From Bacteroidota bacterium (GTDB lineage Bacteria > Bacteroidota > Rhodothermia > Rhodothermales > Rubricoccaceae), in contig JBCDKM010000007.1 in NCBI GenBank assembly GCA_038746605.1, forward strand, positions 11,761 through 43,760: a DNA stretch of 32,000 nucleotides. Direction: 5' to 3'. This document shows, piece after piece, positions 11,725 to 29,054 of this stretch (position 1 is the first letter of the stretch; each line of letters begins with the position of its first letter). The position numbers were made by a program, and so were the translations under genes. The notes beneath the pieces were generated by a model. It was not told the DNA's origin and did no database searches. It saw nothing but the letters and a program-made list of their open reading frames with translations.

Positions 11725-11777
11725 GGGTCGGAGAGGACGGGGCGAAAGCTAGTGGTGGTCCGGGCGGATCGGAGGGC

Positions 11778-13229
11778 ATGCGCCCGTACCCCGCTACGGA
11801 GTCTCGGGCTCCCGGAAGCGCTCCCGAGGCGGTCCGGGCGGGCCGGAAACCTCGCGGATCCCTAGCTTCGGCGCCCGTGCCCCGACCGCTTCCCCGGCTC
11901 CTCCTCGCTTCCACAGCGCTGCTCGCGCTAGGCTGGACGGTCTACGTCCTCGCAGGAGACGCCCTCGCGGGCGTACTGGCCGACCGTCTTCGGGGCGCCG
12001 TCCGCGCCGCCACAGACGGTAAACTCCGCGACGCCGCTCCGTTTTTTCTCCACCGGCTCCGGGACGCGCTCGTCATCGCGGCGGCGATCGTGGGCGCGTG
12101 GGCGCTGAACTGGGCCGTGGTGCCGAGGGTGTCCAAGTGGAAGGGGGCGTGGCTGCCGCTCGGGGCGCTTTTCTTCGTGGAGGCGAACGTGATTCTTGCC
12201 GTGATGGCGCGGACCGGGCTCTTCTGGTTCGCGATGTACGCGGGCGGCAGCGCGCACGATGTCTCGCGCTTCTACGTCCGCCAGGCCATCGCGACGGATG
12301 CGAACGCGGAGCGCCTGGTCGGCATCATTGGGAGCAGCCAGGCGGGTACGCAGATCGACGAGGACCAGATCAACGAGGCCCTTGGCGACGACCTCTACGC
12401 AGCGCAACTCAACTTCCCTGCCGCGAAGCCCTACTCGTTGCTTCTCCTGCAGGACGACCTGGAGCGCGTCCGCCCCGATGCCCTCGTGCTCTACCTCAGC
12501 GAGGTCTCGTTCCTACGCGGCACCGGCCTGGAGCACCTCCCGCTCTTCGCCTCTGCAGGCGCTCTGTCTGACTTCGCCCGCCTCGGTGGTGAGGCGGACT
12601 GGGACCGCGACCGTGTCCGCAACGGCTGGATCTCGGCTGCCGTCCCAGCCTATCGGCTTCGAAGTCCACTCTCGCAGCGATTCTTAGGTCGTACCAGTGT
12701 CCCGCGCCCGGCGGAGATGAACCTCCCCGACGACGACCTTCCGAACCCGAAGGCCATTCAGGACATCGCGGAGGACGATCCCATCTTCCAGGCCGAGTTG
12801 GAGCGCCGCGCGCGGCTCCTCATCTACGGTGAACCCGTCGACTTCCAGTACCGCGCTCTCGAAGTCTTCGCCCAGCGCGCCGACGCGGCGGGCATCGACC
12901 TCTACCTCCTGCCAGGCACGGTTCACCCCGCGTTGGAAGCGCGCCTGCCGGAGGGCACGCGGGCGCAGATGTTGTCCGTCCTGCGCGGCCTTGGGGAGCG
13001 GTACGAGCGCGTCCACTACGTGGAGGAGGCCCGCCTTCCTCGCCTGGAGCACGCCGACTTCAAGGACCCGGCCCATGGCTCGAAGCGGGGCCAAGAGCGG
13101 TTCACCGCCGGACTAGTGGAGGTGCTGCGCGAGGAGATCCTCGGCGAGACGCCCGTGCGGCCGGACTCACTCGTCACAGTCGCGAGCGTTTCCTCTGAGA
13201 CCCATCAGTCGGACGGAGCCGCGCGATGA
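11778..13229 (+). CDS. Membrane-anchored SGNH/DUF1574-like protein, putative acyl-transfer partner of the downstream MBOAT
   Basis: N-terminal TM helices are followed by VGIIGSSQAG (GDS-like block I) and ADFKDPAHGS (D-x-x-H block V). The stop overlaps the MBOAT start as ATGA. The start is uncertain: ATG 11778, GTG 11877, or the ORF start at 11682. Confidence 0.5.
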   Translation: MRPYPATESRAPGSAPEAVRAGRKPRGSLASAPVPRPLPRLLLASTALLALGWTVYVLAGDALAGVLADRLRGAVRAATDGKLRDAAPFFLHRLRDALVIAAAIVGAWALNWAVVPRVSKWKGAWLPLGALFFVEANVILAVMARTGLFWFAMYAGGSAHDVSRFYVRQAIATDANAERLVGIIGSSQAGTQIDEDQINEALGDDLYAAQLNFPAAKPYSLLLLQDDLERVRPDALVLYLSEVSFLRGTGLEHLPLFASAGALSDFARLGGEADWDRDRVRNGWISAAVPAYRLRSPLSQRFLGRTSVPRPAEMNLPDDDLPNPKAIQDIAEDDPIFQAELERRARLLIYGEPVDFQYRALEVFAQRADAAGIDLYLLPGTVHPALEARLPEGTRAQMLSVLRGLGERYERVHYVEEARLPRLEHADFKDPAHGSKRGQERFTAGLVEVLREEILGETPVRPDSLVTVASVSSETHQSDGAAR

Positions 13230-14740
13230 TCTTCAACTCCCTCGCGTTCCTCGTCTTCCTCCCGGTCGTCATCGGGGCGTACTACCTGCTGCGAAAGGCC
13301 CGGCTGCAGAACCGGTTTCTGCTCGTCGCGAGCTACGTCTTCTACGGCTGGTGGGACTGGCGCTTCCTGCTCCTCATCGCGCTTTCCACCGTCGTGGACT
13401 TCTGGGTGGCGCGGCGCATCGACGCGAGGCGCGAGGCGGTCGGGCCGGACGCCGAGGCGGGCGCCCTCAAGAAGACGCTCCGCCCCTACCTCTGGGTCAG
13501 CCTCGCGGTCAACCTCGGGGTGCTAAGCTTCTTCAAGTACTTCAACTTCTTCTCCGGCAGCGCCGAGGACTTGATGCTCAGCCTCGGCATGACGCCGGAC
13601 TGGCCGACGCTGGGCGTCATCCTCCCGGTCGGCATCTCGTTCTACACGTTCCAGACGCTCAGCTACACCGTGGACGTCTACCGCGGCACGATGCGCGCCG
13701 TGGACGACTTCTTCGACTTCGCGCTCTACGTCTCGTTCTTCCCGCAGCTCGTCGCGGGACCCATCGAGCGGGCGCAGACGCTGATGCCGCAGGTCCAGCA
13801 GGCCCGCACGTTCAGCCGCTCCCAGTTCACCGACGGCGCGTGGCTCATCCTCCTCGGCTTCGTCAAGAAGGTGGTCATCGCGGACCAGCTCGGCCGCATC
13901 GCCGACCTCGGCTTCCAGACGGACACCCCCGAGTACGGCTGGCTCGGCGCCTTCCTCTTCTCGGCCTGCTTCGCCTTCCAGGTCTACGGCGACTTTTCAG
14001 GCTACTCGGACATCGCGCGGGGCACGGCCAAGCTGATGGGCTTCGAGCTGATGATCAACTTCGGCAAGCCGTTCCTGATCACCAACCCGAGCGCGTTCTG
14101 GCGGCACTGGCACATCTCGCTCTCCACGTGGCTGCGGGACTACCTCTACATCCCGCTCGGCGGCAGCCGGGGCGGCAACACTGCCGCCTACCGCAATCTC
14201 ACGATCACGATGATTCTCGGCGGGCTGTGGCACGGGGCAGGCTGGGGCTTCGTGCTCTGGGGCCTCTACCATGGCGTGCTCCTCAGCATCCACCGCTACT
14301 GGAGCCGCAACGTGTGGGCCAAGGTGCCGTGGCCGCAGGGCCTCCGCATCGCGACGGGCAAGGAGCAGATCGCTACGCGAGGGATCAGTAACGGGCTCTC
14401 GCACGCGCTGCTCGTGACGGGCTTCTTTGTGTTCTTTCTCTCGCACTGGATGGTGTTCCGCTCCTCCACGCTGCCGGAGGGCAACTCCCAGTGGACCTAC
14501 GTGGTGAACTGGCTCGGGGAGTGGTTCACGAGCGCGGGCATCGAGCAGGCCACGCCGTGGCTGCCCGCGTTTCTGCTCTTCGCGACCCTCGCGATGCTGG
14601 CCCAGTGGAAGGACGAGGCAATGGAGCACTTTTCGACGTGGACGCCCGCGCGGCAGGGGCTCGCCATCGCGGCGGCGCTGCTGACCATCGCGGTCTTCGG
14701 CGTCTTCGAGGGGACGGAATTTTTCTACTTCCAGTTCTAG
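13226..14740 (+). CDS. MBOAT-family membrane O-acyltransferase (AlgI/DltB-like)
   Basis: Polytopic membrane protein with FFPQLVAGPIER, DFSGYSDIARG, FWRHWHISLSTWLRDYLYIPLGGSR and GGLWHGAGW, which contain the conserved MBOAT histidines. Confidence 0.85.
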   Translation: MIFNSLAFLVFLPVVIGAYYLLRKARLQNRFLLVASYVFYGWWDWRFLLLIALSTVVDFWVARRIDARREAVGPDAEAGALKKTLRPYLWVSLAVNLGVLSFFKYFNFFSGSAEDLMLSLGMTPDWPTLGVILPVGISFYTFQTLSYTVDVYRGTMRAVDDFFDFALYVSFFPQLVAGPIERAQTLMPQVQQARTFSRSQFTDGAWLILLGFVKKVVIADQLGRIADLGFQTDTPEYGWLGAFLFSACFAFQVYGDFSGYSDIARGTAKLMGFELMINFGKPFLITNPSAFWRHWHISLSTWLRDYLYIPLGGSRGGNTAAYRNLTITMILGGLWHGAGWGFVLWGLYHGVLLSIHRYWSRNVWAKVPWPQGLRIATGKEQIATRGISNGLSHALLVTGFFVFFLSHWMVFRSSTLPEGNSQWTYVVNWLGEWFTSAGIEQATPWLPAFLLFATLAMLAQWKDEAMEHFSTWTPARQGLAIAAALLTIAVFGVFEGTEFFYFQF

Positions 14741-14770
14741 GAGCGCGCGGCGGTGGGCAGCGGAGTCGCC

Positions 14771-14804
14771 CCGCCTCGGTGGGTCCGTGGGCGTGCCGAG
14801 GCGG
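14771..14804. repeat. CCGCCTCGG palindromic element, long-loop copy, terminator-like after the MBOAT gene
   Basis: ccgcctcgg-tgggtccgtgggcgtg-ccgaggcgg, 31 nt past the MBOAT stop. Confidence 0.8.
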
Positions 14805-14872
14805 GCGGAGTACAGCACGGTGTGCCCGCAGGGATCGTCAGTCGAACGCGCAGCCATAGGTTCGGCCACGCG

Positions 14873-14890
14873 GGGCGCGCCGGCGCGCCC
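14873..14890. promoter_or_regulatory. Perfect 18-bp palindrome just upstream of the STING-domain gene (candidate operator or 5'-UTR hairpin)
   Basis: gggcgcgccggcgcgccc is its own reverse complement and ends 19 nt before ATG 14910. Confidence 0.3.
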
Positions 14891-14909
14891 ACCGCCTTCC
14901 CCCTGACCG

Positions 14910-15983
14910 ATGAGTACCGACTGGGCCAGCGACCGCCGTCTCGACATCCTCGTCCTCGGCCCAATGGGCGAGGATCCCGCAGGTCCGACCTCGACCGTTC
15001 CAATCCGCGACGCACTCGAACGCCTCCTGCAGGAAGACGAGATCCGTGCGCTCCTCGACGCTCGCAGCGTCCAGAGCGCGACGGTTCATATGCCCGAGGG
15101 GCAGAACGAGCCCGAGATCGTTCAGCGAGTGCTCCACCTGCTCGACACCGCCGACCTCGTGGTGTTCAACCTCAACCCGAAGGAGAGCACCCCGGACCGC
15201 GCCAACGTCTTCTACGAGCTTGGGCTCGTCCACGCGCTCGGCATCCCGTCCATGCTCGTTGCCTCGGCAGGCACCGAGGTGCCGTTCTACGTTCAAAGCG
15301 TCCGCCGTTACATCGCCAGCGACTTCGAGGTCTCGACGCTAGCCGACCTGCTCCGCCAGCCTCTCCGCGACTTCCTCGATACCACCAACGCGGCCACGTT
15401 CGCCAATGACCGCGTGAGCCAGTTCTACCGGGCGCCCGTCATCAATATCTCGGCGGCGGCCGGATTAGCGGTGGGCTACTACTTCAACTTTCTCGCCCGG
15501 CTGATCACCGAGGGCGGCTTTCTCGCGGAGTACCCGGATGCCTATCGGCACGTCGTCTACGTCCGCCCGTCCTCTCTGGAGACGACCTATCAGGCCGACC
15601 AGGAGCGGCTGCGCCGAGCGCTGGAAGCAGAGGGGCTTACACTCGAAACCGGGCGTCAGCTCAAAGCGATCCCAGCCGACAACAAGGGGCCGATCTGGTA
15701 CGACCACGTCGAGGACATCGTGATCGACATTCCCCGAGCGATCTACACGCTGCGGCGCTCGCCGCGGCTACTCTCGTTCCTGGCGCGAGCCCCGGCCGAG
15801 CGGATCCAAGAAGCTGCGTTCGAGCAGCGACTCCTGCAGATCGGACAGGACTTGCTCTCAGACGTGGAAGCTGCGCTGCGGTATCAGGTCCGTGAGGACG
15901 CCATGCGCGTGCGGCGCGAGATCCTGCACCTCAGCACAATTGAGGAGGCCCCGGCGCTCGTGCAGAGGCTGCTGGAGGGCTGA
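14910..15983 (+). CDS. TIR-like (Rossmann, catalytic-Glu type) N-terminal domain fused to a STING cyclic-dinucleotide-sensor domain
   Basis: C-terminal half: AAGLAVGYYFNFLARLI matches human STING GLAWSYYIGYLRLIL, HVVYVRP matches LYILLP, and VIDIPRAIYTL matches VLEYATPLQTL. N-terminal half: LDILVLGPMGE...ADLVVFNLNPKESTPDRANVFYELGLVHALGIP resembles the TIR module of bacterial TIR-STING effectors. Confidence 0.6.
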   Translation: MSTDWASDRRLDILVLGPMGEDPAGPTSTVPIRDALERLLQEDEIRALLDARSVQSATVHMPEGQNEPEIVQRVLHLLDTADLVVFNLNPKESTPDRANVFYELGLVHALGIPSMLVASAGTEVPFYVQSVRRYIASDFEVSTLADLLRQPLRDFLDTTNAATFANDRVSQFYRAPVINISAAAGLAVGYYFNFLARLITEGGFLAEYPDAYRHVVYVRPSSLETTYQADQERLRRALEAEGLTLETGRQLKAIPADNKGPIWYDHVEDIVIDIPRAIYTLRRSPRLLSFLARAPAERIQEAAFEQRLLQIGQDLLSDVEAALRYQVREDAMRVRREILHLSTIEEAPALVQRLLEG

Positions 15984-16307
15984 GCAGGATCACCGCGACC
16001 CTGCGGGTGTGCTGGCGGTGCTCACGCACGGTGATGACAGGCGCCAATCGGCACGGCTCTCGCGAGGTCTCTGGCGCGGCACCGCTCGCACTCTCTACAT
16101 TTTCAGCGTCTTCCCCGGGCGCTCGCTTGACTGTTTTTCTCTCAGACGTTTCCTTCGAGCTGGGCGGCTACCGCCGCCGCCTCGCGCACAACTCCACGCT
16201 CTCCCGGGTGCGCCCGCAGATGTGGTGGCGCGAGAAGATTTCCGGCAAGAGCCAGAGGCGCTACTCCCCTGCCCTGGCTGGCGGACCAGATTCGCGAGGC
16301 CGACGCT

Positions 16308-16703
16308 GTGGTCCACCTCACGGGCGAGGTGCCCGGCGCGATGCCGATCGAGGTGCACGTCTGTCGTCTCTACGCCCACCTCAGCGACGAGCCCGAGGCG
16401 CGGCGCCTGCTGGAGGAGGCGATCCGCATCGAGCGGCTGCAGTTCGATCCCCGTCACGTCAATCTCGTCATCCGGTATCTCAACCTCGCCCACGTTCTGT
16501 GGGACAGCGGTGAGCAGGACGGGGCTGCCACGCTCGCTCAGATCGCCCTCGCCATCTTTCTCTTCCGACTCGGTCCCGAGCACGAGCACTCGTACGCGAA
16601 TACCGCGCAGGGTGCACTGCACACTCTCGATCCCGCGTGGGTGGAAGCTGTCAAAGCAGGAGAAGCGAACCCCTTCGAATACCTGCCCCTTGAAGCGCTA
16701 TGA
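16308..16703 (+). CDS. TPR-like helical-repeat protein; probably the 3' part of a longer frameshifted gene starting near 16127
   Basis: EARRLLEEAIRIERLQFDPRHVNLVIRYLNLAHVLWDSGEQDGAATLAQIALAIF forms TPR-like helix pairs. The start shown is GTG. High third-position GC continues upstream in this frame to about 16269, then switches to another frame (see finding). The stop overlaps the next start as ATGA. Confidence 0.5.
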   Translation: MVHLTGEVPGAMPIEVHVCRLYAHLSDEPEARRLLEEAIRIERLQFDPRHVNLVIRYLNLAHVLWDSGEQDGAATLAQIALAIFLFRLGPEHEHSYANTAQGALHTLDPAWVEAVKAGEANPFEYLPLEAL

Positions 16704-19084
16704 ATCCCTCTCGTCGCTCCGCTTGGCTCCTGCTCATCATCGCCGCCAGCGGTTTGGTTGCGTATTGGAGCACGTTCGCCGCGCTCGCGGGGACCAGCTT
16801 CGGGCCGGAACGCTTTTTCTCGGCGGCTACCATCTTCTCGTTTTCCGTCCCAGAAGGCGCGGATGGCATCGGGGTGCCCCTCGCGCAGATCGCTGCGCTC
16901 GTGTTCGGGTTCACAGCCGTCCTAGGCGTTGCTCTCGAACTCTCGCCGAGCGTCCGAAGCGCTCTGCGACGTCTCCACTTCCGGCTCCGCCGAGGCATCC
17001 TCCGTCGCCGTCCGGCGGTGGTGATCGGGCTAGGCTGGGTCGGTGGAGCGCTCGCCGAAGAGATCCGCCAGTCGGGCCGTCCGGTCTACGCCCTCGCGCT
17101 GGACAAACGCGGCCCCCGCGCCGAGGCTGCTGTTCGCGTCGGCGTCCTCGTGGAAGAGGGCGACGCGACGACGGACGAGGCGCTGGAGAGGGTACCGCTC
17201 GCTGCCGCCGAGGAGGTGTTCATCGCTACCGGTGAGGACATGCGCAACCTCGAAATCGCGGGCTCCATCCTGCGCAGCACGTCTGGCCGGGGCCGTCGAG
17301 TGTACGTCCACATCGGAGATCCGAGCATCGGCGTCACGGCCGTCAAGCGTGAGGTGCTGCCCCGCGAGGCTGGCGGCACGGAGTACTACCTCTTCAGCGT
17401 CCACGACAACGCCGCGTCGCTGGTCGCGGCCGATCTCCACCGCCAGGCCTCGTGGGCGGACGATGAGGCGCTGCATGTCGTCCTCGTCGGGTTCGGGATG
17501 CTAGGGCAGACGCTCGCGCTTCGGCTGGCACGGTCGCTGCACGGCCCCAATCACCGCCGCCTCCGGCTGACGGTCCTGTGCAGCCCATCTGAGCGGAGCG
17601 CCGTGGCTCGCTTTCGCGCCCTCCATCCCGGCTTCGCTCCTGCGCCTGGCTTCTCGCTCCGCGACTGGAATCCGGCCCGCGATGCATGGGACGTGACCGC
17701 TGGTACCGATCCCGCCGCCGAGTCATGGCGCACAGCCGCTCTCCATCCTCGGGCGGTCGAGGTGGCCGTGCTGGCGGAGTTCGTCGAGACGGCGACACCT
17801 GTGTCTCCCGAGACCACCGCCTTACTTCTGGACCGGTTCACGGCGCGCGAGGGCGTGCGGGTGCGCCCGGCGATTGTGGTGGCGACGGATCAGGAGAAGC
17901 TGAACGCCCGGTACGCGGTCGGTCTGCAGGACGCGCTGCTCGTCGCCCGCCAGTGGCCCCCGGTCCCGCCGAGGCGTCAAGACGAATCGCCAGACCTCGC
18001 ACACACGCCCGTTCCCACGGATGGCATCGCGCCCGTCGTGCCGCTCCACCCGTACCTCTTCGACGAGACGGGCTTGCACGCCCTCATGGAGGAGATGCAG
18101 CGACTAGACCTTGCCTCCGGTGTGCCGCGAGACGTGAAGGGTTGGGAGAAGCAGCAGCGTGCCCGCAGCCACCCGCTCCGGCCCTTCGGCTTCCGCACGG
18201 CGACTGCCAGCTACGGCGTCGTCACGCGCACCCGCGAACGGGAAGACGCGAAGCGGCTCCATGAGATGTACCGGCTCCTCGCCGGTCAGCCGGATGAGCC
18301 GATCCCGTCCGCCTTCGAGATCTCGAACCTGGACGCCGTCGCGCTGGCGTATCGCGTCTTCGAACGCTACTTCGTGGCCTCGCCGTATCGCCTCACACCA
18401 GACGAGGCTGAAGCTGCCGGTGTACAGTTCGATCCCGTTCTGGCTCCCTCTCTTCCAGATGAGTTGCTCGACGAGAGTGTCCGCCCGTTCTGGCTGCTGG
18501 CTCGTCTGTTCAGTTGGTCACCGGACAATCCCTCAAGGAAGGAAGCCCAATGGTTTCAGGAAGAATGGGCGATGGACTTGCATCCCACCATCCGCCCGCG
18601 TCTGGGGGAGTCCGAGGAGCGCCGCAAGCTCCGCGAGGATGCAATCGGGGATCTACAGAAGTGGATCAAAGAGTGCGCTGACCATGATAGGCGTCGGCAG
18701 ATCATGCTCGACGAGTACCGTAGCGATACGCCAGTCGAAAGAAGTATCCACACCGACAAATTCCTGGAGGGATTCAAGCAAAAGATCGGTCAAGACCTCG
18801 CCGACCGACTGGCGGAAACGGAGCACAACCGCTGGATGGCCGAACGCCTCGCCCTAGGCTGGCGCTATGGCCAGCGCTCAGACTCCGGCCGACGCCGCGA
18901 GACGTTCCTCGTCTGGGACGATCTCACCGAAGAGCAGCGGGTGTACGACCGAGCGCACCTGCCCCGCCTGATTCTCGAAAGTCAGGCCGCTTTCGGGAGC
19001 TGCAAGCCGGGCACATTCTACTATCTCCGTACGATGCCTCAGCCCTCACTAGACGACCCGCCCGCTAGTGGAGTCACGGCGTAG
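16700..19084 (+). CDS. Membrane protein with two Rossmann (RCK/TrkA-N-like) domains and a C-terminal RyR domain
   Basis: TM helices AWLLLIIAASGLVAYWSTFAAL and VPLAQIAALVFGFTAVLGVAL. GxGxxG motifs occur in VVIGLGWVGGALAEEI (then VYALALD) and VVLVGFGMLGQTLALRL. The C-terminal AETEHNRWMAERLALGWRYGQRSDSGRRRETFLVWDDLTEEQRVYDR matches the RyR-domain pattern. Confidence 0.65.
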   Translation: MNPSRRSAWLLLIIAASGLVAYWSTFAALAGTSFGPERFFSAATIFSFSVPEGADGIGVPLAQIAALVFGFTAVLGVALELSPSVRSALRRLHFRLRRGILRRRPAVVIGLGWVGGALAEEIRQSGRPVYALALDKRGPRAEAAVRVGVLVEEGDATTDEALERVPLAAAEEVFIATGEDMRNLEIAGSILRSTSGRGRRVYVHIGDPSIGVTAVKREVLPREAGGTEYYLFSVHDNAASLVAADLHRQASWADDEALHVVLVGFGMLGQTLALRLARSLHGPNHRRLRLTVLCSPSERSAVARFRALHPGFAPAPGFSLRDWNPARDAWDVTAGTDPAAESWRTAALHPRAVEVAVLAEFVETATPVSPETTALLLDRFTAREGVRVRPAIVVATDQEKLNARYAVGLQDALLVARQWPPVPPRRQDESPDLAHTPVPTDGIAPVVPLHPYLFDETGLHALMEEMQRLDLASGVPRDVKGWEKQQRARSHPLRPFGFRTATASYGVVTRTREREDAKRLHEMYRLLAGQPDEPIPSAFEISNLDAVALAYRVFERYFVASPYRLTPDEAEAAGVQFDPVLAPSLPDELLDESVRPFWLLARLFSWSPDNPSRKEAQWFQEEWAMDLHPTIRPRLGESEERRKLREDAIGDLQKWIKECADHDRRRQIMLDEYRSDTPVERSIHTDKFLEGFKQKIGQDLADRLAETEHNRWMAERLALGWRYGQRSDSGRRRETFLVWDDLTEEQRVYDRAHLPRLILESQAAFGSCKPGTFYYLRTMPQPSLDDPPASGVTA

Positions 19085-19347
19085 CCCAGTAGGAGGGTGG
19101 CTTTAATGGCCTCCAGCGCGGTCCGGCGGTCGTAGTCCTTTTCTTCCTCGCTGAGTTCGGCGTATGGCATCAGCCCGGGGTGCCTCTTCGCGTCGTCGTC
19201 ACGTCGCGGGCCGTAGGTCCAGCCCTCCGAGAGCCGCCCCTTCGCCCACACATCGTGGACGTGCTCAGCCAGCTGTTCCACGAGCCCATCTAGACCAGAG
19301 GGGAGCACGATGGAATCAGTCGGGAGGGGAGCGGGAGTGTAGGCCAC
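19039..19347 (-). CDS. Stand-alone RyR-domain protein
   Basis: [56 protein letters not shown] is a near-textbook RyR (ryanodine-receptor repeat) motif. The 3' end overlaps the convergent 16700..19084 gene by 46 bp. Confidence 0.65.
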
Positions 19348-19556: not shown

Positions 19557-21611
<2,055 letters not shown>

Positions 21612-21690
21612 GGGATGGGGCCAGTGGCCAGCGGCCAGTGGTCCACCCGACCTGCCATGCCTGCTGCTGCGTCTTCCCGTTCCACTCCGT

Positions 21691-21710
21691 CCGCCTCGGG
21701 CCCGAGGCGG
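21691..21710. repeat. CCGCCTCGG palindromic element, short-loop copy, terminator-like after gyrB
   Basis: ccgcctcgg-gc-ccgaggcgg, 80 nt past the gyrB stop. Confidence 0.85.
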
Positions 21711-21743
21711 GGGGACCCGGTCGGGGCTGAACCCAGGGGGCCG

Positions 21744-22217
21744 ATGACGTGGGCGGAGGTCTGCGCCCGTCCCGAACTCCGCGACCTCCCGTACAAGATC
21801 GAACTCGACCGCTACGGCCGGATCGTGATGAGCCCTGCTCCCTCGCGCCACAGGATCCTCCAGCGCCGCCTACAGAAAATCCTCGAAGACGCGCTGGGAG
21901 GCATCGCCATCCCGGAGTGCCCTGTGGATACGCCCGAGGGCACGAAGGTGGCCGATGTGGCGTGGATGGAGGAGACGTTCGCGATGGAGCATCAAGACAC
22001 AGCCGCATTCCCTGTCGCACCACCGGTCTGCGTCGAGATCATGTCGCGCTCGAACACGACGGGCGAGATGGAAGAGAAGGTGATGATTTACCTTGCGAAG
22101 GGCGCGCAGGAGGTCTGGGTGCACCAGCGTGACGGGCGGCTCCGGTTCTTTGCGCACGAGGGCGAGATCGAGCGCTCTCGCCTCGCACCGGACGCGCCCA
22201 TGGCGGTCGAGCTGTGA
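21744..22217 (+). CDS. Uma2-family (DUF820) PD-(D/E)xK endonuclease
   Basis: From ATG 21744: YKIELDRYGRIVMSPAP, VADVAWM, PPVCVEIMSRSNTTGEMEEKVMIYLAKGAQEVWV is the typical Uma2 core. The upstream part of the ORF covers a repeat and looks non-coding. Confidence 0.7.
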   Translation: MTWAEVCARPELRDLPYKIELDRYGRIVMSPAPSRHRILQRRLQKILEDALGGIAIPECPVDTPEGTKVADVAWMEETFAMEHQDTAAFPVAPPVCVEIMSRSNTTGEMEEKVMIYLAKGAQEVWVHQRDGRLRFFAHEGEIERSRLAPDAPMAVEL

Positions 22218-26931: not shown

Positions 26932-28650
26932 ATGCGCCCGCTCGCCTTCGCCTTCGCCCTCGCGCTCTTCGCCGCACCCGCCCTCGCGCTCTTCGCCGCA
27001 CCCGCCCTCGCCCAGCCGCTCGGCCTCCCGGACGGCCCCCCGTACGTCCTCACCGGCGCGACGATCTACACCGTGGACCGCGCCAACCCCACCGCCGAAG
27101 CGTTGGCCGTGGGCGCGATGGGGGAGGTGGTCGCCGTCGGCACCGAGGCGGACGTGCTTGCGGCCTACCCGGACTGGCCCCGCGCCTCCGCCGAGGGTCG
27201 CGCCGTCATCCCGGGCTTGATCGACGCGCACGGGCATCTGATGGGTTTCGGTGAGACTCTCCTCCAGGCCGACCTCGTCGAGGCAGCATCCATCGAAGAG
27301 ATCGTCGAGCGTCTCCGCCAGTTCGCCGATGGGTTGCCCGAAGGCGCGTGGCTCGTCGGGCGCGGCTGGGACCAGAACGACTGGCCCGCGCAGCCCGATG
27401 GCTCGCACCCGTTCCCTACCCGCGCCGACCTCGACTCGGCCTTCCCGAACCGCCCCGTCGCGCTGACTCGCATCGACGGGCACGCGCTCTGGGCGAATAC
27501 TGCCGCGATGGTCGCCGCCGGTCTGGACCCCGAGACCCCTGCCCCCGCCGATCCGGAGGACGGACAGTTCCTCCGCGATGACCGAGGCCGCCCGACAGGC
27601 GTCTTCGTGGATGCGGCCGAACTCGTCGTCACGGACGCTATCCCGACGCTCTCTGCCGAGACCCGTGCAGAGGCGCTGACCCGCGCCCTCGCGGAGACCG
27701 CGCGGCACGGCCTCACGGGCGTCCACGAGGCGGGGATCCCGATAGCGCTTCTTCCGCTCTACGAGCGGCTCATCACTGAAGGCCGCTTCCCGATCCGCAA
27801 CTACGCGATGCTGAGCATGGACCAACTCGGCACGTTTTGCAAAGCCTACCCCGAGGGTTACGAGGGCAACGCCCGCCTCCGGGTGCAGTCGCTCAAAGTC
27901 TACTCCGATGGTGCGCTCGGGAGCCGGGGCGCCGCGCTCCTCGCGGACTACTCCGACGATCCCGGCAATACGGGCCTCCTGTTCCAGAACACGGAGACGC
28001 TGACGCGGACCGTCACACAGGCGATGAACTGTGGGCTCCAGGTCAACTCCCACGCCATCGGCGACCGGGGCAACCGCGCCGTCTTGGACGCCTACGAGGC
28101 CGCGATGGAAACCACGGGCGGCGGTCTGGGGCGGCACCGCATCGAGCACGCGCAGGTAATGTCCCTGCCCGACATCGAGCGGATGGCACGCCTCGGCATC
28201 ATCGCGAGCGTGCAGCCGACCCACGCGACGAGCGACATGCCGTGGGCCGAGATGCGCGTCGGGCCGGAGCGGATCAAGGGCGCGTACGCGTGGCGGCGGA
28301 TCGTGGACGCGGGGGCCCGCATCGCGCTCGGCTCAGACTTCCCGGTGGAGCGCGTCGCGCCGCTGCTCGGTTTCCACGCCGCCGTGACACGTCAGGACGC
28401 GGAGATGAATCCCGCAGGCGGCTGGTACGGCAATCAGGTGCTCTCGCGCGAGGAGGCCCTGCGCGGCTTCACGCTCGACGCGGCCTACGCCGGGTTCATG
28501 GAAGACGAGGTCGGCAGTCTGGAGCCGGGCAAGCGGGCGGACTTCGTGATTCTCTCCCAGGACCTGATGCGTGTTCCGCCGGAAGAGATCCTTGCCACGG
28601 AGGTTCTCGCGACCGTCATCGACGGAACGCCCGTCTTCGTCGCGGAATGA
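26932..28650 (+). CDS. Secreted metal-dependent amidohydrolase (Amidohydro_3 / YtcJ-like)
   Basis: Has a signal peptide, then VIPGLIDAHGHL (the HxH metal motif), NSHAIGDRG, RIEHAQV and ALGSDFPVE. Confidence 0.8.
   Translation: MRPLAFAFALALFAAPALALFAAPALAQPLGLPDGPPYVLTGATIYTVDRANPTAEALAVGAMGEVVAVGTEADVLAAYPDWPRASAEGRAVIPGLIDAHGHLMGFGETLLQADLVEAASIEEIVERLRQFADGLPEGAWLVGRGWDQNDWPAQPDGSHPFPTRADLDSAFPNRPVALTRIDGHALWANTAAMVAAGLDPETPAPADPEDGQFLRDDRGRPTGVFVDAAELVVTDAIPTLSAETRAEALTRALAETARHGLTGVHEAGIPIALLPLYERLITEGRFPIRNYAMLSMDQLGTFCKAYPEGYEGNARLRVQSLKVYSDGALGSRGAALLADYSDDPGNTGLLFQNTETLTRTVTQAMNCGLQVNSHAIGDRGNRAVLDAYEAAMETTGGGLGRHRIEHAQVMSLPDIERMARLGIIASVQPTHATSDMPWAEMRVGPERIKGAYAWRRIVDAGARIALGSDFPVERVAPLLGFHAAVTRQDAEMNPAGGWYGNQVLSREEALRGFTLDAAYAGFMEDEVGSLEPGKRADFVILSQDLMRVPPEEILATEVLATVIDGTPVFVAE
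26957..27004 (+). repeat. Perfect 24-bp tandem duplication inside the amidohydrolase signal-peptide coding region
   Basis: ccctcgcgctcttcgccgcacccg occurs twice back to back (26957-26980 and 26981-27004), giving ALALFAAPALALFAAPALAQ. Confidence 0.9.
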
Positions 28651-29054
28651 CGCGCGAGGACATCCGCCGAAGCCGGTTCCTCTCGCTGGTCCTCCGCCAC
28701 CGCCCCGAGGCGGCTGGACTTGTGCTCGATGCGGAGGGCTGGGCTGAGGTCTCAGCGCTTCTACGCGGCGCGACGCAGCGCGGGGTGGATCTCTCACCTG
28801 GGGACGTGGTGAGGGTGGTGCAGGACAACGACAAGCAGCGATTCGAACTCAGCCCGGACGGCGCTCGCATCCGTGCGAGGCAGGGGCACTCCGTCCCCGT
28901 CGACCTCGGCCTAGCGCCACGCATCCCGCCGGACGTTCTCTTCCACGGGACGGTCGCCCGTGTGCTGCCCGCGATCCGCCGCGAAGGTCTCCGCCCGATG
29001 CAGCGTCACCACGTTCATCTCTCGCCCGACCGCGAGACGGCGGAGCGCCGGTAG
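28647..29054 (+). CDS. kptA: RNA 2'-phosphotransferase (Tpt1/KptA family), C-terminally truncated relative to E. coli KptA
   Basis: SRFLSLVLRHRPEAAGLVLDAEGWA, KQRFELSPDGARIRARQGHS, LFHGT and QRHHVHLSPDRETAERR* are present. The ORF stops about 45 residues before where E. coli KptA ends (from memory). The ATG overlaps the amidohydrolase stop as ATGA. Confidence 0.7.
   Translation: MTREDIRRSRFLSLVLRHRPEAAGLVLDAEGWAEVSALLRGATQRGVDLSPGDVVRVVQDNDKQRFELSPDGARIRARQGHSVPVDLGLAPRIPPDVLFHGTVARVLPAIRREGLRPMQRHHVHLSPDRETAERR

Follow-up and report, generated by a model that had tools for sequence, protein, structure and literature searches.

A STING gene linked to RCK-RyR and RyR genes but to no CD-NTase gene in a Rubricoccaceae genome: a possible, partly decayed Thoeris-like island

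Between an MBOAT gene and gyrB, a 32,000-nt stretch of a Rubricoccaceae genome (Bacteroidota, Rhodothermales; assembly GCA_038746605.1, contig JBCDKM010000007.1, forward-strand positions 11,761 to 43,760; hereafter the window, with positions counted from its first letter) holds a block that a sequence-only reading had put forward as four undescribed genes: a TIR-like/STING gene (g1), a TIR/DUF4062-like gene with TPR repeats (g2), a gene for a membrane protein with RCK and RyR domains (g3) and a gene for a small RyR protein (g4). The flanking genes are where that reading placed them (Table 1), and between them we find three intact genes and the relic of a fourth, g2, instead of four genes. Linkage of g1, g3 and g4 is beyond chance: their homologues form a conserved unit that recurs in many unrelated settings. 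Our leading reading, held tentatively and at slightly less than even confidence, is that the block is a partly decayed island of the Thoeris type, working through an NAD-derived or ADP-ribose (ADPR) messenger, and not a cyclic-oligonucleotide-based antiphage signalling system (CBASS), with g1 as input and synthase, g3 as effector and g4 as buffer.

We collected 36 loci encoding g1-family proteins, counting complete and truncated contigs together; several of the domain calls in these relatives are sub-threshold, and those of SLOG-like domains combine E-values of 3e-4 to 2e-3 with a reading of the motif. A g3-type gene adjoins the STING gene in 15 of the 36 (the window, L001, L138, L008, L021, L022, L019, L024, L027-L030, L034, L062 and L142), and small RyR genes orthologous to g4 (97-104 aa) recur in L001 and L138. 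Hosts of the paired genes belong to several phyla and include Rhodothermales-like metagenome-assembled genomes (MAGs), Cyclobacteriaceae, Lacihabitans, Telluribacter, Comamonadaceae and other Pseudomonadota, together with one metagenome contig, and the flanks are unrelated; in L142 the pair forms a bare two-gene island between the genes for xanthine dehydrogenase and acetyl-CoA synthetase. Where no g3-type gene is present, the usual neighbour of the STING gene encodes a SLOG-like protein with four transmembrane (TM) helices (4TM; L012, L014, L015, L016-L018), a SLATT protein (L020), or a protein joining a nucleoside 2-deoxyribosyltransferase-like (NDT) domain to a TPR-S domain (L025, L031). 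The published partners of TIR genes include 'SLOG and 4TM', 'SLATT' (type VII) and 'CMP hydrolase and TPR' (type VIII) (Yirmiya et al., Table S2, 10.64898/2025.12.03.692087), and the partners of STING other than g3 match, as far as sequence can tell, these Thoeris effector classes.

TIR or DUF4062 proteins, mostly sensors of the STAND, Roc-COR or TPR kind, are encoded in 12 of the 36 STING loci. TIR-type sensors stand beside the STING gene in L001, L012, L015, L018, L019, L021, L139 and L141, and among the 12 lineages with both STING and g3 a TIR occurs in three only (L001, L019 and L021). Its presence varies among close relatives, being found in L001, reduced to a relic in the window and missing from L138, with g1, g3 and g4 intact throughout; a decayed TIR-STAND gene was sought in Cyclobacterium marinum (L008) and Lunatibacter (L022) without finding a trace, the gene being simply absent there. 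If g1 displaces TIR, such a picture, with TIR usually missing while g1, g3 and g4 remain intact, is what one would expect. These neighbourhoods support an island that is a conserved nucleotide-signalling unit of the conflict type, set between housekeeping genes. The sequence-only reading had proposed such a conflict-system character, to be given up should the homologues lie in freely varying neighbourhoods or the STING call fail; instead the homologues co-occur in synteny, the STING call holds (below), and a unit conserved among changing flanks, with partners from immune families, bears the proposal out.

Other genes also recur around STING. Two small conserved open reading frames (ORFs; ~136-160 aa) without Pfam match lie 5' of it in Pseudomonadota (L034:8963-9880, L032:8914-9860, L036:2787-4144), and in L034 they stand between the STING and g3-type genes. 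Proteins of 780-807 aa, likewise without Pfam match, are encoded directly 5' of STING at L012:7620-9962 and L139:7535-9958; the L012 protein has a region with a SLOG-like GADD motif and four C-terminal TM helices, and a homologue of it, split into two ORFs, lies directly 3' of STING at L023:3659-5450. In the islands of the two closest relatives (L001:11173-17030 and L138:2197-5385) a gene for a TraG/VirD4-like ATPase (425 aa) comes straight after the STING gene; the window has none.

The product of g1 joins an N-glycosidase-like domain of the NDT/DrHyd kind (residues ~9-160) to a STING domain (~170-357). For STING the evidence is a Pfam match to prok_STING (PF20300) at residues 182-310, scoring 42.2 bits against a cut-off of 27.1, and a Foldseek match of the domain alone to 6wt4 (TM-score 0.73); in the AlphaFold2 (AF2) model (pLDDT 85) the whole protein is best matched by the TIR-STING structures 9lmq and 7un8. 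The STING half of the earlier 'TIR-like/STING' label thus stands and the half that made it a TIR NADase does not, the N-terminal domain being NDT/MilB/DNPH1-like (DrHyd) and no canonical TIR. Its Pfam match to Nuc_deoxyrib_tr (PF05014) is borderline (29.6 bits, cut-off 28.8), and its Foldseek matches to MilB (4ohr/4jel) and DNPH1 (8rps/8qhr), with TM-scores of 0.58-0.67, are better than those to any TIR. Across the family alignment Y102-E103, inside NVFYELG, and D82 are invariant and D79 nearly so; Y102, E103 and D82 match what we take to be the DNPH1-type motif, namely a catalytic Glu in G-x-x-Y/F-E-L/I-G with an upstream Asp, so that fold, Glu context and upstream Asp all place the domain in the NDT/DrHyd group. 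Conflict systems are held to use enzymes of this fold as NADases or ADP-ribosyl cyclases (PMC9503650).

In known STING proteins c-di-GMP is recognised by a Phe for stacking, an Arg in the lid that reads guanine, and an Asp and a Thr for N2 and phosphate respectively (PMC8748872). The g1 pocket keeps the stacking F194, N193 and D273-x-P275 (matching F92 and D169 of FsSTING); the lid Arg (FsSTING R151) aligns, in a lid whose alignment is uncertain, to an acidic residue conserved in the g1 family, D257, and the phosphate-Thr position is T in most members of the family and A277 in g1. At E <= 1e-30 the family comprises 131 clusters at 50% identity. A viral origin was considered and rejected: a scan of IMG/VR, made for the g1 and g3 families, found no relative of either.

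To our knowledge, the one role described so far for bacterial STING is that of cyclic-dinucleotide receptor in CBASS operons, and in every characterised case that we know of it is the ligand-activated sensor on an effector. No CD-NTase was found by a Pfam scan of the large ORFs of the 32-kb window or in the precomputed Pfam lists of L001-L010 and L138-L143, and neither CD-NTase nor SMODS appeared among the 25 most populated families listed for 100 further flanking ORFs (Pfam, PADLOC), where a single match could be hidden; by these scans none of the ~36 STING loci has one. The STING effectors characterised so far are encoded in operons with a CD-NTase (PMC8748872). The window thus has the STING domain of a CBASS with no CD-NTase in the same operon, and in the place of the adjacent intact TIR synthase of a Thoeris system it has the g2 relic only. 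Because no enzyme for the usual STING ligand is encoded nearby, we infer an undescribed wiring of nucleotide immune signalling.

The first description of g3, a 794-aa protein with TM helices, two GxGxxG domains and a C-terminal RyR domain, is confirmed. Pfam finds TrkA_N (46 bits) and RyR (32.5 bits, cut-off 27.4), and the protein runs from a TM region (residues 6-81), where hydrophobicity marks two helices (~10-28 and ~61-79) flanking a short helix, through a TrkA_N/RCK tandem (105-330) with the motifs GLGWVGG (110-116) and GFGMLG (264-269) and a helical middle to the C-terminal RyR (698-753). The AF2 model (pLDDT 67) is confident in the RCK core only; its Foldseek matches are TrkA (4j9u/4g65), GsuK (4gx0/4gx5) and MthK (6oly), with E-values of 5e-8 to 1e-5 for TrkA and GsuK. 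In the RyR domain a divergent alignment of the g3 family shows no variation at H709, W712 and D750, and R733 takes the place of the phosphate-binding His. On this architecture g3 is probably a channel-type membrane effector. Two roles had been suggested for the RCK/RyR proteins: that of membrane effector fits the mostly TIR-neighbouring, Thoeris-type layout of the g3 family described below, and that of generating the signal found no support.

Homologue searches with g3 alone and with a broad family alignment gave seven close relatives, the wider family being reached by DNA-pattern scans. An extra N-terminal SLOG-like domain, with the motif TGFAKGADELVA ... WDG ... GGT, was seen on some g3-type proteins (L008:11401-14265, L022:11729-14491, L019:6026-8434, L062:9314-11812), and the resulting order of SLOG, channel-like TM region, RCK and RyR recalls the SLOG domain of TRPM channels. 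At L096:11929-14688 and L098:4796-7555, directly 3' of a g3-type gene, an AAA/STAND-like NTPase of 920 aa is encoded that ends in an RyR domain, showing that RyR domains are also fused to NTPase sensors.

Seen from the g3 side the neighbourhood is a different one. A metagenome scan with the g3 family gave 80 loci, ~70 of them with full-length TM-TrkA_N-RyR proteins, and a STING neighbour in only one (L062), so that the reverse association, from g3 to STING, is weak. TIR or DUF4062 neighbours were found in 34 of the 80 (30 TIR, 5 DUF4062), a further RyR-domain protein, in several cases small, in 11, and patatin in some. At L082 the g3-type gene (621-2414) is followed by a TIR ORF (2418-2735) whose product shares 63% identity with a TIR of type X Thoeris, from Vibrio sp. 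JCM 19052, and 56% with a second TIR of that type. Type X Thoeris consists of a TIR (cluster 2598792572) and an effector, ThsK, that is annotated 'Ion channel' and whose signal is undescribed (10.64898/2025.12.03.692087). The search of plasmids by tblastn brought up only type II (TIR and macro) relatives when started from the type X TIR, and nothing useful when started from the g3-type protein of L082. Since its members are mostly TIR-adjacent and the L082 TIR resembles that of type X, the g3 family is very probably a Thoeris effector class and likely ThsK itself, to which it is linked by the TIR neighbour and the annotation, not by the sequence of ThsK.

The bare RyR protein read from g4 is confirmed by a Pfam RyR (PF02026) score of 110.7 bits. 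It matches residues 861-949 of RyR2 with a per-domain E-value of ~1e-19 and Bacteroides thetaiotaomicron 3nrt with a whole-sequence E-value of 4e-28. The sequence-only reading had held that RyR domains in bacteria have no established function, which has been superseded: RyR-domain proteins of phages have been shown to bind 2'cADPR and 3'cADPR, two cyclic forms of ADPR, or to hydrolyse them, and in the phage protein RyDEP the residues H75, W78, H100 and D117 are the ligand or catalytic residues for both (PMC13232231, a 2026 preprint). All four are kept in g4 at the same spacing (H31, W34, H56, D73), and g3 keeps H, W and D along with its R733. In both L001 and L138 the small RyR gene directly follows, in the same orientation, a gene for a Cas_NE0113 protein (CARF-like, 422 aa), which the window does not have.

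As to g2, described at first as a TIR/DUF4062-like gene with TPR repeats, it is a truncated, frameshifted relic of a sensor gene of the DUF4062/TIR-(NTPase)-TPR kind. The TTG at 16127 does not share its frame with the ORF ending at 16703, and the sole open frame that reaches the ATGA at the start of g3 has 131 codons and shows TPR_12 only (34 bits). Pieces resembling DUF4062 lie in three frames (16130-16189, 16192-16272 and 16278-16346), so that two frameshifts would be needed to join them, and the peptide spliced by hand from all three scores 14.2 bits (E = 0.053) against a cut-off of 24.7 bits; no single frame matches DUF4062, and the intact DUF4062 that marks Swarozyc-type NADases is thus lacking. 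An intact g2 was rejected on these two counts. Significant homology was found to one protein alone, a TIR_2-NB-ARC-TPR protein of 897 aa from a related locus, whose C-terminal TPRs are 53% identical to the relic over 101 residues. In L015 and L141 the full-length equivalent is a DUF4062-TPR gene (~700 aa) that directly follows STING, and in L001 it is the TIR_2-NB-ARC-TPR gene. The near-identical marine contigs L001-L004 differ only in the length of the latter gene (~12776-15847), which encodes 771, 897, 981 or 1023 aa depending on the number of TPR_12 repeats; this suggests that the TPR repeats of such sensors expand and contract rapidly.

A working scheme under our leading reading would run as follows. 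On infection, an enzyme of N-glycosidase fold would make a small messenger of the ADPR type, which would bind the C-terminal RyR of g3; the tandem RCK ring would then open or disrupt the membrane domain of g3, and the resulting collapse of membrane potential would abort the infection. In this scheme g1 would be both input and synthase, in place of the Thoeris TIR, with STING binding a nucleotide cue or driving oligomerisation and so switching on the NDT-fold domain. The g4 protein would bind or hydrolyse the same messenger and, as a buffer supplied by the host, would set the threshold of the system or reset it; g2 would once have been an additional TIR-like (DUF4062)-TPR sensor, now dead. What the sequences show is the identity of the domains, the synteny, the lack of a CD-NTase in the scans, the linkage of the g3 family to TIR and the retention of RyR ligand residues, whereas signal chemistry, a flow of information from g1 to g3, channel activity and buffering by g4 are inferred. 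The synthase role for g1 is favoured by its standing in the TIR position beside four different Thoeris effector classes. A more specific form of the proposal, in which the NDT/DrHyd-STING protein replaces the Thoeris TIR as a STING-controlled, ADP-ribosyl-cyclase-like synthase, so that STING acts upstream of the signal and a (c)ADPR-type product is read by the RyR of an RCK channel and buffered by a free RyR, as counterpart and possibly forerunner of the path from CD38 through cyclic ADPR (cADPR) to the ryanodine receptor, is possible but we consider it doubtful.

Several observations weigh against these assignments. On the g3 side, no K+ selectivity filter (T-V/I-G-Y/F-G) was found in the protein, the segment between the two helices, FFSAATIFSFSVPEGADG, is poorly conserved, and the TM and RyR regions have low confidence in the AF2 model; the link to type X is one truncated TIR ORF, and on plasmids TIRs of that cluster have macro-domain effectors as partners too. 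At least five STING loci (L005, L033, L035 and others) have no recognisable partner. On the g1 side, the N-terminal domain is nearest in sequence to that of the ThsI-like NDT and TPR-S proteins, and because it is homologous to those effectors, and known STINGs are sensors on effectors, g1 itself looks like an effector. Since TIR or DUF4062 proteins do occur in a third of the STING loci (12/36), a TIR generator in cis or in trans is possible.

One rival we regard as unlikely though possible: the same Thoeris-like island, in which g1 is a second effector and the ADPR-type signal is made by a TIR or DUF4062 sensor, which is dead here and in many relatives would need to be encoded elsewhere. A re-tuned STING would bind the TIR product and the NDT domain would destroy nucleotides or NAD+ in parallel to the g3 channel. 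Homology of the g1 N-terminal domain with that of the NDT and TPR-S neighbours, which a hidden Markov model of the STING family matches in L025 (E = 8e-8) and L031 (E = 2.5e-5) and BLAST aligns at 33-41% identity, would look like an exchange of TPR-S for STING as the sensor; L031 resembles an array of multiple effectors (in order, TIR, a ThsI-like protein, a TPR-S protein, patatin and STING), the eight loci listed above have TIR-type sensors beside STING, D257 in the apparent place of FsSTING R151 (PMC8748872) would permit a different ligand, and known TIR-STING proteins are effectors. It would, however, leave most loci that pair STING with a Thoeris effector as effector islands without a generator, since they have no TIR within 5-10 kb (the window, L138, L008, L022, L014, L017, L025, L029, L142, L034 and L062), and lineages from which the TIR gene has been lost still have g1, g3 and g4 intact.

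Improbable, in our judgement, is a second rival, by which g1 is an orphan STING effector of the CBASS type, its c-di-GMP or cGAMP coming from a phage or from a CD-NTase or GGDEF enzyme whose gene lies elsewhere, and g3 and g4 are a separate module of a shared defence island. The STING fold is indeed nearest to c-di-GMP/cGAMP-bound structures (9lmq, 7un8, 6wt4, 7ebl) and keeps the pocket residues F194, N193 and D273-x-P275 that correspond to F92 and D169 of FsSTING, but the Arg of the lid, which confers specificity for c-di-GMP, does not seem to be kept, the scans above found in none of the ~36 loci the CD-NTase whose operons hold the characterised STING effectors (PMC8748872), and the tight, repeated adjacency of g1 to genes of the g3, SLOG and SLATT kinds, down to the two-gene island of L142, argues for coupling. 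Mere juxtaposition, of ion-transport regulators (NCBI labels g3 'NAD-binding protein', and TrkA_N domains are frequent in K+ transport) with a nucleotide-salvage enzyme (the label of g1 homologues at JGI being 'nucleoside 2-deoxyribosyltransferase'), is very improbable and is contradicted by the neighbourhood analysis: the synteny holds in at least nine lineages with unrelated flanks, exchange of partners stays within families of immune-type sensors and effectors, the vicinity holds genes for TIR, STAND and Roc-COR sensors, patatin and further defence genes, and presence is patchy even among close relatives.

Table 1. Positions of the block, its flanking genes and its non-coding elements in the window
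Feature	Position	Strand	Size	Remarks
MBOAT gene	13226-14740			5' flank of block
Hairpin, GC-rich	14770-14805			between MBOAT stop codon and g1; arms 14770-14779 and 14796-14805, 10-nt perfect; loop 16 nt
Palindrome GGGCGCGCCGGCGCGCCC	14873-14890		18 bp	perfect; 20 bp 5' of g1 start
g1	14910-15983	+	357 aa	NDT/DrHyd-like and STING
g2 relic	16127-16703	+		sole open ORF 16308-16703, 131 aa, TPR_12
g3	16700-19084	+	794 aa	TM, TrkA_N/RCK and RyR
g4	19039-19347	-	102 aa	bare RyR domain
gyrB	19584-21611			3' flank of block

The closest relatives are Rhodothermaceae MAGs. The window has a GC content of about 67%, and its GC composition gives no clear island signal. The ATGA overlap of stop and start codons that had been noted before g3 is present (16700-16703) and joins the end of the 131-aa g2 ORF to the start of g3; the convergent genes g3 and g4 share 46 bp at their 3' ends (19039-19084). 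A convergent arrangement of a small RyR gene and a g3-type gene was also seen in the metagenome locus L056. The hairpin upstream of g1, taken earlier for the terminator that closes the MBOAT operon, is there, yet it may belong to the island instead, because L001 (9887-9922) and L138 (910-945) have hairpins at a comparable position, ~80-140 bp 5' of the STING start, each followed just after by a short conserved GGTGTGCC. The perfect palindrome GGGCGCGCCGGCGCGCCC that had been reported is likewise present; its sequence is not kept in the upstream regions of the relatives compared, and it could be an operator or a chance palindrome of GC-rich DNA. Scans of the window for tRNAs, Rfam families, promoters and terminators gave nothing informative. 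Beyond the block, a gene for a putative endonuclease of the Uma2 family (21615-22217) begins 4 bp past the gyrB stop codon, and a Tpt1/KptA (NAD+-dependent RNA 2'-phosphotransferase) domain at ~28656-29036 is encoded just past an amidohydrolase gene (26932-28650), in a called ORF (27837-29054) so long that it overlaps this gene; the true gene for the domain is probably short.

Every single module of the island is already known, and the pairing of g3 with TIR has probably been catalogued as type X Thoeris. In the literature searched we found no paper on the pairing of STING with RyR or RCK proteins, in keeping with the earlier impression that no such system has been described, or on that of STING with a Thoeris effector; an NDT-STING family without CD-NTase and host-encoded RyR receptor or buffer proteins are likewise not in that literature. 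With 131 clusters outside CBASS, this family would mean that STING reads another class of messenger or controls the synthesis of one. Bacterial RyR domains would gain a role as receptor or buffer on the host side, complementing that on the phage side, and g3 gives the 'ion channel' effector of Thoeris a molecular model that experiments can test.

Of the systems known, the TIR-STING (Cap12) effectors of CBASS (SfSTING 7un8, 9lmq; FsSTING 6wt4) are like g1 in joining a Rossmannoid N-terminal domain of N-glycosidase type to a C-terminal STING within ~310-360 aa, and unlike it in that g1 has an NDT-like N-terminal domain, no CD-NTase in the loci scanned, apparently an acidic residue for the lid Arg, and neighbours of the Thoeris type. 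ThsI of type VIII Thoeris ('CMP hydrolase and TPR', activated by canonical cADPR) has an N-terminal domain of the same NDT/MilB fold, and the N-terminal domain of g1 is homologous to that of the NDT and TPR-S neighbours of STING in L025 and L031; the ThsI sensor is TPR-S where that of g1 is STING, and the window lacks the adjacent TIR. Type X Thoeris resembles the island through the g3 family, most often TIR-adjacent, and through the L082 TIR, whereas the window, lacking a functional TIR, has a STING-NDT gene in its place and a separate small RyR protein.

The RCK-gated 2TM K+ channels and TrkA rings (GsuK 4gx5, MthK 6oly, TrkA 4j9u), of which GsuK is gated by NAD+ and ADP, share with g3 the two TM helices that flank a short helix and the TrkA_N/RCK tandem that follows; g3 differs by the missing TVGYG-type filter and by its extra helical region and C-terminal RyR. 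Like RyDEP, g4 is a stand-alone PF02026 protein with H..W, H and D at identical spacing, and the RyR of g3 keeps H, W and D, but g3 and g4 are host genes in a chromosomal, defence-type island between MBOAT and gyrB, with predicted roles in reception (g3) and self-buffering (g4) rather than in immune evasion. Finally, although g1 does not fall in the ADP-ribosyl cyclase (ARC) clade by the tests run and the channel is of RCK rather than ryanodine-receptor type, an NDT/DrHyd enzyme gene beside a gene for a channel-like protein with an RyR repeat resembles, as an analogy only, the animal axis from CD38/ADP-ribosyl cyclase through cADPR to the ryanodine receptor. With STING, a CD38-fold enzyme and an RyR repeat, all modules of eukaryotic immunity or Ca2+ signalling, standing side by side, the origin of cADPR-RyR signalling could be approached by experiment.

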